From: a virus
Direction: 5' to 3' (one strand)
IMG/VR virus record: IMGVR_UViG_3300045988_126062
Length of the DNA: 64,000 nt
Position numbers and translations under genes: made by a program. Shown piece after piece: positions 4,794 through 49,460 of this stretch. The notes below the pieces were generated by a model, which saw only the letters and a list, made by a program, of their open reading frames with translations, ran no database searches and had not been told where the DNA came from. The stretch's first letter is position 1. Each line of letters begins with the position of its first letter.

Positions 4794-5267
4794 ATGAAAG
4801 AGGAAGTAGAACGGATAAAGAGGTTGGTTGGCATAGATCATAATAGATGGGAGCAGCCTTGTACATGTGATAAATGCAAGAACATGTGTAAGGTTTCTTG
4901 TATTGGTACACCAAAGGACATGGAAGCTATCATAGATGCAGGATATGCTGACAGGCTAAAAGAGACAATGTGGATGGTGGGGTATCTTGCAGTGAAAGAA
5001 AAACCAATAGCGATGATCCAACCAACAGAGAAAGACGGGTGGTGCGTGTTCCGCCGGCCAGACGGTCTCTGCGAGCTGCATGACCGTGGACTAAAGCCGA
5101 CTGAAGGAGTTCTGGCTTCTTGTAAGGTGGTTGAAGAAGACAATGTCCCAACATATGAAACGTCTGTACTTAGAGCAGTAGCTCATGAGTGGGTTAAGGT
5201 AGAGAACTTCGCAACTATAATGAGGGTCGTTTTTAAATTTTTGCATGAAAATGAACGTAGAAAATAA
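4794..5267 (+). CDS. Hypothetical Cys-rich protein (157 aa)
   Basis: ORF track; CTCDKCKNMCKVSC cluster. Confidence 0.5.
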   Translation: MKEEVERIKRLVGIDHNRWEQPCTCDKCKNMCKVSCIGTPKDMEAIIDAGYADRLKETMWMVGYLAVKEKPIAMIQPTEKDGWCVFRRPDGLCELHDRGLKPTEGVLASCKVVEEDNVPTYETSVLRAVAHEWVKVENFATIMRVVFKFLHENERRK

Positions 5268-5655
5268 ATTAGATAAAGTGGTTAATATCCTAAAAGAAAA
5301 AGGATTTGTAGTATATAGAAAGGGCGGGAAGGAGCCAGGTGTGTTTTACGCTAAAGAAGGTGACAGCCGGATAGGATTCGTTTATCCCAACAACGGATAT
5401 ATATATGATAGAATAAAAATGTGGTCTTTTTCAAGGATATATAAACCACATAAGAAAACCGGGTCTTCGTGTTTAATGAGCGTCAGCGACGAATTTACGA
5501 TAGAGAATGCGATTAAGAACATAGAGGATAGACTGTGGGTGAATTATATAAAAGATGGTAACAGAAAACGACCAGAAGAATATAAAAATATAAGAGAATT
5601 TGTTGGTAGCTTCACTAAATTCTACAACTCTGTAGAATTAGTTGAGGTTAAGTAG
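5245..5655 (+). CDS. Hypothetical protein (136 aa)
   Basis: ORF track. Confidence 0.5.
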   Translation: MKMNVENKLDKVVNILKEKGFVVYRKGGKEPGVFYAKEGDSRIGFVYPNNGYIYDRIKMWSFSRIYKPHKKTGSSCLMSVSDEFTIENAIKNIEDRLWVNYIKDGNRKRPEEYKNIREFVGSFTKFYNSVELVEVK

Positions 5656-16844: not shown

Positions 16845-16882
16845 ACTCTTACAGAAAGACACATGATGGTGCATCTATAGGA

Positions 16883-17497
16883 TTGGATTTTGGCCTGAAA
16901 ACTTATCTAACTAAAAGCGATGGTAGCAAAATTGATTCTCCACTATTCTTCAAACAATATCAAAACAAGATTAGAAAACTAAACAAACGGATTTCTAATG
17001 CAAAGAAAGGATCCAACAATAGAAGAAGGAGACTGTTTGAACTCCAACAAACGTATCGTAAAATAAACGATCTTCGATCGGATTTTCAATGGGGATTAGC
17101 ACACCAGTTATGCAAACAATATGATTATATTTTTATTGAAGATCTAAACATTGAAGGAATGAAACGTTTGTGGGGAAAGAAGGTTTCCGATCTTAGTCAT
17201 TCTTCTTTTATTGACAAACTTACGTATGTTGCTTCAAAGTATGGAGTGATAGTACACAAGATTGACAAATGGTATCCTTCTTCCAAAACTTGCGAATGTG
17301 GCTGCATTAATAAAGGACTGTCGTTACGCGACCGCACGTGGGTATGCCCGTCGTGCGGAGCGGTAAACGACCGTGATGTTCTTGCAGCCCGTAATATACT
17401 TCGGAAGGGCATTTCCGAATTGGAGAGCAAGAGTAATTCCAGCGATAGCAATATCGGGGTTTCTTGCGTTTGTATCCAAGAATCCCATTTGCTTTAG
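16883..17497 (+). pseudogene. tnpB: 5'-truncated TnpB remnant (RuvC + zinc-finger C-terminal half only, 204 aa; the WED/REC N-terminal half is absent)
   Basis: GLDFGLK (RuvC-I) begins right after an in-frame stop; RuvC-II IEDLNIEGM; zinc finger CECGC...CPSCG; RuvC-III NDRDVLAARNI. Confidence 0.6.
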
Positions 17498-17563
17498 CGA
17501 TGGGAGTGTGTCAAGTTAAAAGATATCGGCATCGGTTTTAGAACCATAGAAGGTGCAACAGAG

Positions 17564-18054: not shown

Positions 18055-18062
18055 TATCTTTG
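18055..18062 (+). promoter_or_regulatory. Candidate Bacteroidota-type -7 promoter box TATCTTTG (TAnnTTTG)
   Basis: Motif read upstream of a 33-aa ORF and omega-RNA copy A; the consensus is from established Bacteroides promoter studies. Confidence 0.3.
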
Positions 18063-18224
18063 TCCAAAAAACAAACAAAATGGAAGAAAAAGAGATAAAA
18101 GAAGCTATGATTGAAGCCCTGACGCACTTAGAGGGGTGTAAGTATTTCGTGGCCACGATAGTAAATAATCGAGAATAATACATAACTCATACAAATCATA
18201 ACCAATTTGTATTGTATTATGCAT

Positions 18225-18463
18225 AATAGCCAAAAGCTATTCCGATTATTAGCCTAAGTGTTGAAACAAACACTACGTTATTTAAGAATAGATAGTTACC
18301 TACGGATATTTACCCAAGTCTGTAGCTCTAAGGTAGGTGATTAAACAGTTCTGGTATTCAGGAACAGTGTTGCTTACGAAAAACCTTAAATAACATTGGC
18401 GATGGGTACTAACAGAGTTTTACTCTGACTTATGTTGAATAAACATTAAAAACGTTTGTAGAT
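18225..18463 (+). ncRNA. IscB omega-RNA, copy A: variable guide-like segment (~18225-18246) plus conserved scaffold starting TATTAGCCTAAG at 18247 and running to the iscB start
   Basis: Directly upstream of an IscB gene; same scaffold found at 30020 and on the minus strand at 49345, with compensatory base changes in two stems. Confidence 0.65.
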
Positions 18464-19690
18464 ATGGTGTACGTACAAGACATAAATGGTAAACCTCTGA
18501 TGCCAACAACGAGGCATGGTAAGGTTAGGAGACTGCTTAAAGATAAAAAGGCAGTCGTTGTGAACCTATGTCCGTTTACCATCCGATTAACGTACGTAAC
18601 ATCTGATTACAAACAGGAAATTGTGTTAGGCGTTGATGCTGGAACTAAGCATGTTGGTTTATCAGCAACGACGAAAAGCAAAGAACTTTACAGCAGTGAA
18701 GTAATTCTTAGAAATGATATCGTAGATCTTTTGTCTACCAGAAGAGAGCTACGAAAAACAAGACGGAATAGATTGAGACATAGAAAACATCGTTTTAACA
18801 ATAGAATAAAAAGTAGGCGTCCCGGATGGACAGCACCTTCGGTGAAATACAAAGTAGACGCCCATATTCGTGTTATTGACAATGTATGTTCTATATTACC
18901 AATATCTCGTATTGTTATCGAAGTAGCTCAATTCGATACTCAAAAGATTAACAATCCTAATATATCAGGTAAAGAATATCAGGAGGGTGATCAACTTGGA
19001 TTTTGGAACGTTAGGGAATATGTTTTAGCAAGAGATGGACATAAATGCCAGCATTGCAAGGGAAAGTCAAAAGACCCAGTATTGAATGTTCATCATATTG
19101 AATCACGAAAGACAGGTGGAGATTCCCCATCTAATCTTATTACCTTATGTGAAACTTGTCATAAAGAATACCATAAAGGTAATATAGATTTAAAAATCAG
19201 AAGAGGCAAGTCGCTTCGCGACGCAGCCGTAATGGGAATAATGAAATGGAGATTGTATGAAGAACTAAAATCTAAATACGACAACATTTCTATGACTTTC
19301 GGTTATGTTACAAAATACAATAGGATTAAACATGGTATTGAAAAATCTCATGTTTTCGATGCATTTGTTATTTCTAAAAACTTTGATGCTATAAGGTTAG
19401 GATATTATTATAAAGTAAGATTAGTAAGAAGACATAATCGTCAGATCCATAAACAAAAGATTCCAAAAGGAGGAATCAAGAGGTTAAATCAATCTCCATT
19501 TGAAGTTTTTGGTTTCCGTTTGTTTGATAGGGTTATGTTTGAAAACAGTTATTACTTTATATTTGCAAGGCGTAAAACCGGTAGTTTTAATATTCGAGAT
19601 ATTGATGGTAAAAACCAAAGAGATATTACATACAAGAAATTGAAATTATCAAGGTGTAAACGCTTTATGGTACAAAAGGAAATGGATTGA
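18464..19690 (+). CDS. iscB: IscB RNA-guided nuclease (PLMP, RuvC-I, Arg-rich bridge helix, RuvC-II, HNH, RuvC-III), 408 aa
   Basis: PLMP motif; RuvC-I LGVDAGTKHVG; bridge helix RRELRKTRRNRLRHRKHRFNNR; RuvC-II IVIEVAQFD; HNH HKCQHCKG...NVHHIESRKTGGDSPSNLITLCETCHKEYH; RuvC-III HVFDAFVIS. Confidence 0.85.
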   Translation: MVYVQDINGKPLMPTTRHGKVRRLLKDKKAVVVNLCPFTIRLTYVTSDYKQEIVLGVDAGTKHVGLSATTKSKELYSSEVILRNDIVDLLSTRRELRKTRRNRLRHRKHRFNNRIKSRRPGWTAPSVKYKVDAHIRVIDNVCSILPISRIVIEVAQFDTQKINNPNISGKEYQEGDQLGFWNVREYVLARDGHKCQHCKGKSKDPVLNVHHIESRKTGGDSPSNLITLCETCHKEYHKGNIDLKIRRGKSLRDAAVMGIMKWRLYEELKSKYDNISMTFGYVTKYNRIKHGIEKSHVFDAFVISKNFDAIRLGYYYKVRLVRRHNRQIHKQKIPKGGIKRLNQSPFEVFGFRLFDRVMFENSYYFIFARRKTGSFNIRDIDGKNQRDITYKKLKLSRCKRFMVQKEMD

Positions 19691-19713
19691 TTAATTTGAA
19701 TAAAAATATAGAC

Positions 19714-20184
19714 ATGAATCGTTGGTTTGAAATCACAGTAAAAGCCGAGATTGATAATATCGAGAACGGCAAAAAAAAGAAAGTAACTGAAAAGTATTTA
19801 GTGGATGCCTTGTCTTACACAGAGGCAGAATCAAGATCGTTGGAGATCTTCAAGGATTTGTACAATTCTTTCGAGGTTGTAAAAATTAATCCTATTAAAG
19901 TGTCGGAAATCTTCTTCAACGGAGAAGCTGAGTACTGGTATAAGTGTAAGGTGAATTACATTACACTGGATGAAAAGAAAGGTAAAGAAAAGAAAACTCC
20001 ATGCTATATGTATATCCAGGCCGGCAATCCTAAGGATGCCGAAGCTGTGTTGACTAAAGGTATGCAGGGTACGTTAGGAGACTGGAATTGCGAGTCTATT
20101 GTTGAAACGAAGATTATTGACGTATTCAAATACGATCTTCAGAAGGGAGCTGAAAAATTAGGCGAGAAGAAGAGTGAAGAGTAA
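19714..20184 (+). CDS. Hypothetical protein (start moved to the ATG at 19714; the ORF-track start at 19687 is a TTG overlapping the iscB stop)
   Basis: ORF track with manual start choice. Confidence 0.5.
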   Translation: MNRWFEITVKAEIDNIENGKKKKVTEKYLVDALSYTEAESRSLEIFKDLYNSFEVVKINPIKVSEIFFNGEAEYWYKCKVNYITLDEKKGKEKKTPCYMYIQAGNPKDAEAVLTKGMQGTLGDWNCESIVETKIIDVFKYDLQKGAEKLGEKKSEE

Positions 20185-29830: not shown

Positions 29831-29999
29831 AGCAAAAGCAGCATTTATAGATTTCCTGCCGGCAGGGACAGTGCTTTACTAATTATAATATTTTTAACAT
29901 GGATTTTGGACAAGATTTAGAACCAGAAGAACTGACCGGGCATTATGATCGGTGTTATAACCCCAAATAGTATTAACCCAATATAATTCTATTATAAAA

Positions 30000-30268
30000 G
30001 TTTAATACATCTCTTTCAGAGATCGGGTTATTAGCCTAAGCCTTGAAACAGAGGCTACGTTATTTGAGAATAAATAGTTACCAAGGAATGTTTATCCAAG
30101 TTTCTTGCTCTAAGGATGGTGATTAAACAGGAGTAGTGTATTTGACGAAACAGTGTTGCCATTATATAAAACCTCTTATAACATTGGCGATGGGTACTTA
30201 CAGGAGAAATCATGACTTATCCCTAACGGGATTTACATCTACCAAGGAGACCGGAAGGTCTCCGAGGG
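30000..30268 (+). ncRNA. Orphan omega-RNA-like scaffold, copy B (no adjacent IscB): distinct 5' guide-like sequence, scaffold from 30020, 3' end replaced by GGAGACC-ggaa-GGTCTCC hairpin (30246-30263)
   Basis: Aligns with copies A and C over ~170 nt; stems retained through compensatory changes (GTGTT/AACAC vs GCCT/AGGC; CTAC/GTAG vs CAAG/CTTG). Confidence 0.6.
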
Positions 30269-30320
30269 GATGTATTAAAACATATGAATAGCTTTAAATA
30301 TATTTAATAGAATATGAGAT

Positions 30321-47867: not shown

Positions 47868-47904
47868 GATACGTTTTTCTATTAAATTTATTAAATCTAT
47901 TCAT

Positions 47905-49143
47905 TTACTTTAATATAATCGGATGCCTCTTCCCTCTAATGAGTTTAAACTTTTTGCGTGAAACATCTTTTGAATTTTCTCCGTTGAAATCCCTGATATT
48001 GAAACTCCCTGATTTTCTCCTTCCATAAACAAAACATATTTTATTATTATACAACACTTTATCAAACAACCTAAAACCAAAAACCTCAAAAGGAGCTTGA
48101 TTGTTTTTCTTCTTTCCTCCTTTTAAAATTTTCATTTTATGTATTTGCCTATTATGCCTACGAATTAAACGTTTTAAATATTGACATCCGATTCGTTTCG
48201 CATTAATGTTCTTAGAAATGACAAACGCGTCGGATGTATGGGATTTTTCAATCCCGTATTTAATCCGATTATGTTTCGTAATGTAACCAAACGTCATAGA
48301 AACTCTGTCGTATCTGGATCTCAGTTCTTCATACAACTTCCATTTCATGATCCCCATTACGGCCGCGTCGCGGAGCGACGATCCCCGTTTGATCTTCAAA
48401 TCTATATTACCTTTATGGTATTCTTTGTGACAAGTTTCACATAAGGTAATAAGATTAGAAGGGGAATCACCTCCCGTTTTTCGGGATTCAAGATGATGGA
48501 CATTAAGGATCTTATCTTTTGACTTCCCTTTACAATACTGACATTTATGCCCATCCCTTGCTAAAACATACTCCCTTGTGTTCCAAAACTCAAGTTGATC
48601 ACCTTCCTGGTATTCTTTACCTAATATTTCAGGATTCTTAATCTTTTGAGTATCAAATTGAGCTACTTCAATAACAATACGAGATATTGGTAGTATAGAG
48701 CAAATATTTTCAATAACACGAATATGAGCGTCTACTTTGTATTTCACCGAAGGTGCTACCCATCCTGGACGCTTGCTTTTTATTCTATTATTGAAACGAG
48801 GTTTTCTATACCTCAACCTATTCCGTCTTGTTCTTCGTAGCTCCCTTCTGGTAGACAAAAGATCTACGATATCATTTCTAAGGATCACTTCACTACTGTA
48901 AAGTTCTTTGCTTTTCGTTGTAGCTGATAAACCAACATGTTTAGTACCAGCATCAACGCCTAACACGATTTCTTGTTTGTAATCAGATGTAACGTACATT
49001 AATTTGATGGTAAACGGACATAGGTTTACAACGATTGCCTTTTTGTCTTTAAGCAGTCTCCTTACCTTACCATGCCTCGTTGTAGGCATCATAGGTTTAC
49101 CATTTATATCCTGTACGTACACCATACTTACAAACGTTTTCAA
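47905..49143 (-). CDS. iscB: IscB RNA-guided nuclease, second copy (412 aa; about 90% identical to the copy at 18464; alternative start MVYVQ at 49122)
   Basis: Same PLMP, RuvC-I/II/III, bridge-helix and HNH motifs as copy 1; C-terminal ~25 aa diverge. Confidence 0.85.
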   Translation of the reverse strand: MKTFVSMVYVQDINGKPMMPTTRHGKVRRLLKDKKAIVVNLCPFTIKLMYVTSDYKQEIVLGVDAGTKHVGLSATTKSKELYSSEVILRNDIVDLLSTRRELRRTRRNRLRYRKPRFNNRIKSKRPGWVAPSVKYKVDAHIRVIENICSILPISRIVIEVAQFDTQKIKNPEILGKEYQEGDQLEFWNTREYVLARDGHKCQYCKGKSKDKILNVHHLESRKTGGDSPSNLITLCETCHKEYHKGNIDLKIKRGSSLRDAAVMGIMKWKLYEELRSRYDRVSMTFGYITKHNRIKYGIEKSHTSDAFVISKNINAKRIGCQYLKRLIRRHNRQIHKMKILKGGKKKNNQAPFEVFGFRLFDKVLYNNKICFVYGRRKSGSFNIRDFNGENSKDVSRKKFKLIRGKRHPIILK

Positions 49144-49368
49144 TGTTTATTCAACATAAGTCAGAGTAAAACTCTGTTAGTACCCATCGCCAATGTTATT
49201 TAAGGTTTTTCGTAAGCAACACTGTTTCGCAAATACACTACTCCTGTTTAATCACCCACCTTAGAGCTACAGACTTGGGCAAACATCCGTAGATAACTAT
49301 CTATTCTCAAATAACGTAGCCTTCGTTTCAAGGCTTAGGCTAATATCCGGACCATTTATGGTACATTA
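49144..49368 (-). ncRNA. IscB omega-RNA copy C (minus strand): scaffold 49345 down to 49144, guide-like segment ~49346-49368
   Basis: Reverse complement aligns with copies A and B; directly upstream of the iscB start. Confidence 0.65.
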
Positions 49369-49460
49369 AAACCTTATAATGAAATTATATTGTTTTAATG
49401 TTATTTCGGATATGAAAACAAATTCGCCACCGTATCTTTTATTAGCCAATTCTTCTACAG

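Follow-up and report, generated by a model that had tools for sequence, protein, structure and literature searches.

Whether an RNA-guided nuclease found inside a phage genome is there as a mobile passenger or as a tool of the phage is the question raised by one locus of IMG/VR virus record IMGVR_UViG_3300045988_126062, from which a stretch of 64,000 nucleotides (here called the window) was analysed. IscB/omega-RNA elements are the presumed ancestors of Cas9, and to our knowledge almost all work on how they behave in nature has concerned bacterial chromosomes. The original prediction placed an iscB gene with an upstream omega-RNA in what looked like a crAss-like phage, and offered two readings: a selfish IS200/IS605-type element or a nuclease domesticated by the phage. 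In our view it is likely that positions 18165–19713 constitute a non-autonomous ISC2-type element of the IS200/IS605 superfamily, consisting of IscB and its omega-RNA only, which would home between epsilon crAss-like phages by means of a guide encoded in its flank.

Judged from its sequence, the product of the open reading frame (ORF) at 18464–19690 is a bona fide IscB with a complete set of catalytic residues. It scores 354.7 bits against NCBIfam NF040563 (the equivalog 'RNA-guided endonuclease IscB', guided_IscB; cut-off 175), matches the Pfam RRXRR model over its full length (1–174 of 174, E = 1.8e-58) and the Pfam HNH model at residues 195–238 (E = 3.6e-9), and a phmmer search of the PDB returns the solved IscB structures, including OgeuIscB (PDB entries 7UTN and 7XHT), with E values from 6e-47 to 3e-45. 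The full IscB domain set described in the original prediction is borne out by these searches, and all of its listed motifs were found: PLMP at residues 11–14, RuvC-I D58, the Arg-rich helix at 93–114, RuvC-II E153, the HNH residues H210/H211, N224 and H237 with CxxC pairs at 195 and 229, and RuvC-III H296/D299. In a residue-level alignment D58, E153, H210/H211, N224, H237, H296 and D299 align with the motifs of OgeuIscB, with which the protein shares domain order and catalytic residues. However, only the core of the two proteins aligns: the window protein has 408 residues compared with 496 in OgeuIscB, its Arg-rich insert is shorter and its C-terminal region that interacts with the target-adjacent motif (TAM) comprises ~76 residues compared with ~113. 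Between copies of iscB at different sites the synonymous divergence (dS) is 0.33–1.35 and the ratio of nonsynonymous to synonymous divergence (dN/dS) is 0.06–0.15, indicating purifying selection. We note that in loci L033, L034, L035 and L044 the iscB frame has no stop codon of its own and continues into the downstream phage gene region; stop loss is probable in L026 and L042 too.

Directly upstream of iscB, the Rfam model for the IscB omega-RNA (HEARO, RF02033) matches 18198–18413 on the plus strand with 106.3 bits (gathering score 83, E = 5e-22). RNAalifold analysis of 13 distinct variants predicts 49 pairs, with compensatory changes in 21 of them. The structured RNA proposed earlier is therefore real, and the covariance model places it above the gathering score, but its start is at 18165 and not at 18225. 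The first seven nucleotides of the element form a helix, P1, with 18243–18249, and the scaffold thus starts at the first base of the element. P1 shows 87% pairing, both sides are changed in three of its pairs (compensatory variants are ATAATCG/CGATTAT, ATATCCG/CGGATAT, ATAACCC/GGGTTAT and GTAACCG/TGGTTAT) and its covariation score lies above those of all 500 shuffles; its 3' strand sits immediately before a conserved TAGCC. The position of the first helix in the Rfam match, 18198, was rejected as 33 nt too far 3', since both the covariation and the end of flank similarity favour 18165–18171, and the Rfam alignment itself flags non-canonical pairs there. The pseudoknot partner segments of HEARO (TAGCC...GGCGA) and its core helices are kept, and the full model exceeds the gathering score at all three loci at which an omega-RNA is found in the window. 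Compared with the OgeuIscB omega-RNA, the 5' module enclosed by P1 is longer here and comes in at least three interchangeable types.

These module types (A, B and C) are unrelated to one another. Locus L079 lies at the site of the second IscB element of the window (Table 1) and yet carries a type A module, as judged by comparison with window positions 49330–49413 and 18165–18245, which suggests modular exchange between element types. A Bacteroidetes-type −7 promoter box (TAnnTTTG; TATCTTTG) is present at 18055–18062, ~100 nt upstream of the scaffold. Among L004, L006, L011, L045 and L082 are some with such a box just 15–22 nt upstream, which would give a short guide without processing. As a general feature upstream of the scaffold the box was discounted: it occurs within 40 nt in only seven of 38 left alleles (three loci).

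Low dN/dS in the protein and compensatory changes in the RNA helices together place both under selection; this bears on their maintenance only and says nothing direct about cleavage. It is hard to reconcile with the idea that ORF and RNA are an inactive relic, recent non-functional insertions that are merely carried along. In favour of a relic, two of the three loci have flanks that are rearranged when compared with the unoccupied genome, and a truncated TnpB gene 650 bp upstream shows that insertion-sequence decay occurs in this genome. Nevertheless, with a full-length ORF that has all its catalytic residues, a dN/dS of 0.06–0.15 across copies whose dS reaches 1.35, base changes that preserve RNA structure and thousands of near-identical intact sequences in public data, we regard this explanation as very improbable indeed.

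The extent of the element was established from its relatives. A scan of IMG/VR found 306 stretches that encode relatives, of which 80 loci at least 82% identical to the query were kept with their flanks, and the ends were set where copies in differing genomic contexts, representing ~20 insertion sites, stop resembling each other. Element #1 so defined begins at 18165 with ATAATCGAG and ends at 19713, 23 nt past the iscB stop codon, instead of spanning 18225–19690 as first proposed. Its 3' terminal module is the TAM-proximal end and, read on the other strand, corresponds to the left end of a canonical IS200/IS605 element. ATG directly follows the element at 20 of 20 distinct right flanks. At the fourth target position 11 of the 20 sites have G, six have A and three have T (a purine in 17), and at the sixth position 11 have A; the boundary of one group was later re-read, which shifts these counts by one. 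The TAM implied by these sites, ATGRNA, fits the NWRRNA of OgeuIscB. The target ATG is mostly the start codon of the next phage gene, while at one site of a mini-element (see below) it precedes a terminator-like hairpin. There is no target duplication and the element is co-oriented with the flanking phage genes. That insertions so often adjoin start codons is best attributed to target specificity combined with the survival of harmless insertions only. The guide-side end is strongly structured, being the omega-RNA, and the ATG-side end is AT-rich.

Insertion at an N|ATGA target, exactly 5' of ATGA and without duplication, has been described for ISC transposons (PMC4810608). The ISC2 members of that group share with element #1 a length of ~1.5 kb, a coding capacity limited to IscB with HNH inserted in RuvC, a non-autonomous character, the lack of terminal inverted repeats and of target-site duplication, insertion exactly 5' of ATG(A/G) and the presence of TnpB-only IS605B elements in the same genome (PMC4810608). 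The differences are that ISC2 transposons were described in bacterial or archaeal chromosomes whereas element #1 is in a phage, and that the fourth target position is relaxed here (PMC4810608). Furthermore, no termini common to element #1 and the TnpB elements of the window were found, and no Y1 transposase was found in the stretch examined.

Table 1. Coordinates of the IscB elements of the window, their parts and their flanks
Feature	Position	Strand	Remarks
Guide-encoding flank, omega-RNA #1	~18145–18164	+	TTTCGTGGCCACGATAGTAA; last sequence before copies at different sites diverge
Omega-RNA scaffold #1 (HEARO family)	18165–18463	+	directly upstream of iscB, same strand
Scaffold #1, P1 helix	18165–18171 with 18243–18249	+	covariation
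Scaffold #1, variable 5' module	18172–18242	+	
Scaffold #1, conserved core	18250–18412	+	
Scaffold #1, two 3' hairpins	18413–18427 and 18432–18446	+	
iscB gene (#1)	18464–19690	+	408 aa; RuvC and HNH intact
3' terminal module	19691–19713	+	TTAATTTGAATAAAAATATAGAC; conserved to the last base before ATG at ~20 insertion sites
Target/TAM motif ATGAAT	19714–19719	+	also start codon of the DUF4494 gene
DUF4494 gene	19714–20184	+	Pfam E = 2.5e-41
Mini-element guide flank	29937–29956	+	GGGCATTATGATCGGTGTT
Omega-RNA-only mini-element (PATE-like)	29957–30320	+	364 nt; HEARO 95.2 bits; no iscB
Mini-element TAM ATGGAA	30321–30326	+	
IscB #2 TAM ATGTAT	47867–47862	−	
IscB element #2	47868–49413	−	complete, 1546 nt
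IscB #2 ORF	49125–47905	−	406 aa; 83% identical to IscB #1
Omega-RNA #2, HEARO match	49176–49413	−	89 bits
IscB #2 guide flank	49433–49414	−	ACGGTGGCGAATTTGTTTTC

The host of these elements could be compared with a complete phage genome. Positions 12,000–64,000 of the window are mostly shared, at 88–97% identity, with crAssE-Sib, a human gut phage of 151 kb (OR575929) that has been described as an epsilon crAss-like phage (PMC11054128). The annotation of crAssE-Sib includes crAss-type virion proteins, and its TerL is 22–24% identical to those of cultured crAss-like phages; the assignment to a crAss-like phage in the original prediction agrees with this. Neither an IscB nor an omega-RNA was found in the complete crAssE-Sib genome, which can therefore serve as the unoccupied comparator. 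We also note that an internal region (approximately residues 116–372) of the 937-residue crAssE-Sib TerL (L085, 20406–23219) has its best matches in other phages under helicase, intein or endonuclease annotations, suggestive of an intein-like insert. The published analysis of epsilon crAss-like phages mentions TnpB only (PMC11054128), and no report of IscB in crAss-like phages was found in the literature searched.

Closely related copies of the element are found at ~20 different N|ATG sites in related phages, and presence or absence differs between close relatives. There are one to three copies per genome, with two in several IMG/VR contigs. Discrete ends, a specific N|ATG target, ~20 sites, several copies and polymorphic occupancy are what the selfish reading of the original prediction leads one to expect; the same variability of site, copy number and occupancy speaks against domestication. 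Exact matches to the IscB proteins are present in public collections as 'hypothetical protein', in 90%-identity clusters of 3063 and 1150 members. The best IscB relatives in a set of 185,579 species-representative genomes of bacteria and archaea are 78 and 69% identical. The 78% match (L087, NZ_JBHMEP010000019.1, labelled Vibrio olivae) is a 20-kb contig with an IscB #2-type element (84% nucleotide identity), the flanks of which are 65–78% identical to this phage group and include the crAssE-Sib capsid-gene region; to judge by these flanks it is probably phage DNA inside a bacterial assembly. Relatives in bacterial genomes were accordingly discarded as a clue to the host, the best matches being phage-like contigs. 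The IscB lineage is apparently restricted to phages and has proliferated strongly in the epsilon crAss-like group.

Two further elements are present in the window. All three are co-oriented with the surrounding genes, which fits the reported tendency of IscB elements to be co-oriented with upstream genes (bioRxiv 10.1101/2023.03.14.532601). At the position of the complete IscB element #2, crAssE-Sib has 1246 bp instead, containing a DUF2829 gene and an ORF. Comparison with the empty site in crAssE-Sib (cggtgtTATGgaattg) shows that the mini-element, which retains the type of 3' terminal module found in iscB-bearing elements, has inserted cleanly 5' of ATG, with a 3-nt ambiguity. It occurs at at least four other sites in related phages (L019:679, L043:9522/L037:9517, L046:1184 and L060:3773). 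With the PATE-like protein-less derivatives of IS200/IS605 elements it shares an omega-RNA and both termini without an ORF, and it would need IscB in trans; a protein-less or stand-alone omega-RNA arrangement has been discussed (bioRxiv 10.1101/2023.03.14.532601). It differs from such derivatives in its spread over at least five sites in phage genomes and in an additional GC-rich hairpin (GGAGACC-GAAA-GGTCTCC) in place of the ORF.

The flank of element #1 that encodes the guide is the remnant of a small phage ORF starting at 18080; the mature guide of characterised IscBs is ~16 nt long. The guide had been sought in a unique segment of ~20 nt just before 18225, which is off by ~60–80 nt: the sequence back to 18165 lies within the element and recurs in dozens of copies elsewhere, and the segment before 18225 is part of the variable 5' module of the scaffold. 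For all three guides of the window, unoccupied sites consisting of the guide sequence followed by ATG exist in related phages. The flank of the mini-element is followed by ATGGAA in crAssE-Sib. That of IscB #2 is followed by ATGTTTGG in crAssE-Sib; six IMG/VR loci bearing the element further downstream have either ATGTTTGG or ATGCTTGG after it. After the flank of IscB #1, crAssE-Sib has ACGAAG; it was predicted beforehand that a synonymous change from AAC to AAT in the small ORF would turn this into ATGAAG, and such alleles were then scanned for. The small ORF is intact in 23 contigs (L097–L119). In three of these (L107, L111 and L118) the last 18–20 nt of guide #1 are followed by ATGAAGAA (ATGAAG), giving the uninterrupted target that the original prediction had suggested looking for, and in the 20 others they are followed by ACGAAGAA. 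The flank in the three ATGAAG alleles matches the guide of locus L020 over its last 20 nt, and the guide of the window with two TAM-distal mismatches.

In occupied genomes the guide is followed by the first bases of the element (ATA, ATT, ATC, GTA or GTT across variants) and never by ATG. The contrast between ATG and the element start after the guide is a plausible rule for telling non-self from self. Other unoccupied variants are GTGG, in 13 of 13 alleles at a tRNA-adjacent site, and ATA, in 11 of 17 at another site. The ACG, GTG and ATA alleles could reflect resistance to insertion or cleavage, or only ancestry.

We infer from the guide+ATG matches of all three guides that homing is RNA-guided. 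In the mechanism that we propose, read-through or promoter-driven transcription would yield an omega-RNA whose 5' guide is copied from the flank and whose scaffold begins with the first base of the element, much as in the OMEGA systems of Altae-Tran and colleagues (2021), in which the omega-RNA is reportedly encoded upstream of the ORF and derives its 5' guide from the flank. IscB and this RNA would cut DNA in which the guide sequence is followed by ATG, that is, the unoccupied allele; the resident copy would be spared, since there the sequence after the guide is the start of the element (ATA/ATT). Upon co-infection with an unoccupied phage, or upon excision, the break would be repaired from an occupied genome and the element, together with any adjacent deletion, would be copied in. 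Moves to new ATG sites would require a Y1 transposase (TnpA) acting in trans. In bacteria, cutting by IscB restores the element after excision by TnpA (bioRxiv 10.1101/2023.03.14.532601; PMC13565253). By analogy with free-standing homing endonucleases, the same chemistry in a phage setting would give homing without excision. Like the phage T4 enzymes SegF and MobE, which mediate intronless homing, the nuclease gene lies between conserved phage genes, and it is predicted likewise to cleave alleles from which it is absent, to enter them by recombination in co-infected cells and to co-convert flanking markers. In contrast to SegF and MobE, target recognition would depend on a flank-derived RNA guide together with a motif of 3–6 nt and not on a protein, and the element has transposon ends and many insertion sites.

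The bacterial precedent also supplies an alternative, in which only the classical cycle operates: TnpA would move the element by 'peel-and-paste' and IscB would serve solely to restore the copy after excision, with no role in transfer between phages. This role of IscB and TnpB has been demonstrated experimentally for Geobacillus IS elements (bioRxiv 10.1101/2023.03.14.532601), a guide equal to the flank always matches the element's own excision joint, and autonomous IS605 elements with TnpA are present in related phage contigs. However, searches with an IS608 TnpA and the TnpA of locus L002 as queries found no TnpA in the 64-kb window or adjoining any fetched IscB copy; the one TnpA element nearby uses TTAC|...TCAA| ends and not a (Y)CAT target; no excision joints for IscB #1 or #2 were found in IMG/VR; and unoccupied guide+ATG targets in other phages mean that homing is possible without excision. 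We consider it unlikely that the classical cycle is the whole explanation.

Under a second alternative the element is not a selfish mobile element at all but a weapon domesticated by the phage, with IscB fixed, beneficial and used to destroy competing phages or host DNA. The strong purifying selection on IscB, the guide matches in related phages without the element and the confinement of close relatives to phage DNA (the best match among the bacterial genomes being itself phage-like) all speak for such a role. Against it, the element is absent from crAssE-Sib despite 91–96% identity, and its ~20 positions, transposon-like ends and specific target, its one to three copies per genome and its gene-less mini-derivatives are those of a mobile element. 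Moreover, each guide equals the local flank, and there is no conserved sequence aimed at a fixed enemy. Domestication is in our opinion improbable, while the killing of competitors could occur as a side effect of homing.

Several observations weigh against RNA-guided homing by an ISC2-type element, the interpretation that we prefer. Production of the omega-RNA, its start and DNA cutting by IscB #1 are predicted from sequence, and the TAM is read solely from insertion sites, which would reflect the target of a transposase equally well. In 20 of the 23 intact target alleles for IscB #1 the guide sequence is followed by ACG and not ATG. For both IscB #1 and IscB #2 the present right flank differs from the sequence that follows the guide in unoccupied genomes, and neither the unoccupied guide|ATGAAT joint of IscB #1 nor the guide|ATGTRT joint of IscB #2 was found in IMG/VR, so that simple excision and restoration is not directly evidenced. 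By eye, no convincing subterminal hairpins of the kind bound by TnpA were seen, only weak palindromes at the ATG-side end. In ~1.47 Mb of fetched related DNA no TnpA was found except that of an unrelated IS608-like element in L002, which leaves the spread to ~20 sites unexplained. Non-autonomous ISC elements, as element #1 is classed, lack TnpA by definition, and most IscB elements are without one, ~1.5% being associated with it (bioRxiv 10.1101/2023.03.14.532601).

The flanks also show an unexpected pattern. Where a locus is shared by many close relatives, variation is found on the guide side, and the flank on the ATG side stays the same. Nine guide-side structural alleles are found among 18 loci at the DUF4494 site, where 107 of 153 pairs fall below 60% identity on the guide side and none of 153 does so on the ATG side; at the IscB #2 site there are five such alleles among nine loci, with 31 of 36 pairs and none of 36, respectively. 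In ~10 of ~16 rearranged guide-side flanks, the flank is followed by ATG in unoccupied DNA. Since ATG occupies only ~2% of strand positions in the window, this is not due to chance, and a 2-nt 'AT' microhomology does not explain it either. Four upstream N|ATG positions have been used at the IscB #2 site (ATGTTTGG, ATGATTGG, ATGAGTTT and ATGTTCAA) and two at the DUF4494 site, namely ATGAAGAA and ATGGAAGA, the latter being where the small ORF itself starts. The stretch from the upstream ATG to the element has been lost, amounting to 180 bp at IscB #1 and to the 1246 bp including the DUF2829 gene at IscB #2; short guide-side jumps of 5–6 nt only are seen in the L037 mini-element and in L072.

From these alignments, the omega-RNA end (the canonical right end) appears to have moved to target sites further upstream, the DNA in between being lost. 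Random, neutral decay of the small-ORF remnant was discarded as the principal explanation for the variability of the left flank, since ATG stands at the start of the deleted segments much more frequently than expected from chance or from 'AT' microhomology. Self-cleavage by IscB followed by end-joining was set aside as a cause of the deletions, as it would not select upstream ATG sites. The flanks of L007, L008, L012, L078 and L030 look like plain small deletions or slippage. Mechanisms that fit the pattern are a one-ended strand transfer by TnpA, in which the omega-RNA end is cut and joined to a nearby target, or recombination between two nearby copies. No intermediate in which the element lies behind an intact small ORF was found in IMG/VR, and the element tail followed by ATGAAGAAGA gave chance matches only in the same database. 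As a speculation that may well prove wrong, although we think it worth stating, the IscB lineage could be an RNA-guided gene drive between co-infecting epsilon crAss-like phages that re-programmes its own guide. If so, each relocation would provide the element with a guide whose match in naive genomes adjoins a TAM, and the drive would spread together with the deletion of phage genes.

Other insertion sequences occur in and around these phages. Locus L002 (MT839900.1) carries a complete IS608-like IS605 element at 300–1983 with a TnpA of 132 residues (NCBIfam IS200, 143.7 bits); its TTAC|...TCAA| ends are unlike the (Y)CAT target of the IscB element. TnpA of the L002 type is present in 17 phage contigs of 10–157 kb that are 69–81% identical to parts of the window. 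The truncated TnpB upstream of element #1 lies at 16855–17514 (+), ends ...GTGTCAA| at 17514 and contains a 204-residue ORF (16883–17497) with OrfB_IS605 and Cas12f1-like TNB domains; the TnpB of L002 is 79% identical to it at the nucleotide level. A full-length TnpB of 391 residues (NCBIfam guided_TnpB, 175.9 bits) lies at 689–1864 on the minus strand. Locus L168 (IMGVR_UViG_3300038956_000066) has a TnpA at 2077–2472, 49% identical to that of L002, and 2.5 kb from it an IscB homologue at 4976–5470, 43% identical to IscB #1. Going by this proximity, the pair may represent an autonomous ISC2Y-like element in a viral contig.

The element family and its N|ATGA target are already known; the novelty lies in the occurrence of this lineage, with its guide-only satellites, in epsilon crAss-like phages and in the pattern of guide-side relocation. 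The public annotation of these IscBs as 'hypothetical protein' is corrected, and a compact IscB of 406–408 residues with a probably short, ATG-type TAM is added to the candidate genome editors. The case offers an apparently phage-restricted lineage with thousands of near-identical public copies from the gut, a single genome with several guides that have matching targets, gene-less guide-only satellites and natural occupied, unoccupied and TAM-variant alleles. As a natural data set, and potentially as an experimental system too, it could help to establish whether homing or gene drive between viruses is a role of RNA-guided nucleases, and it could show how such elements change their guides.

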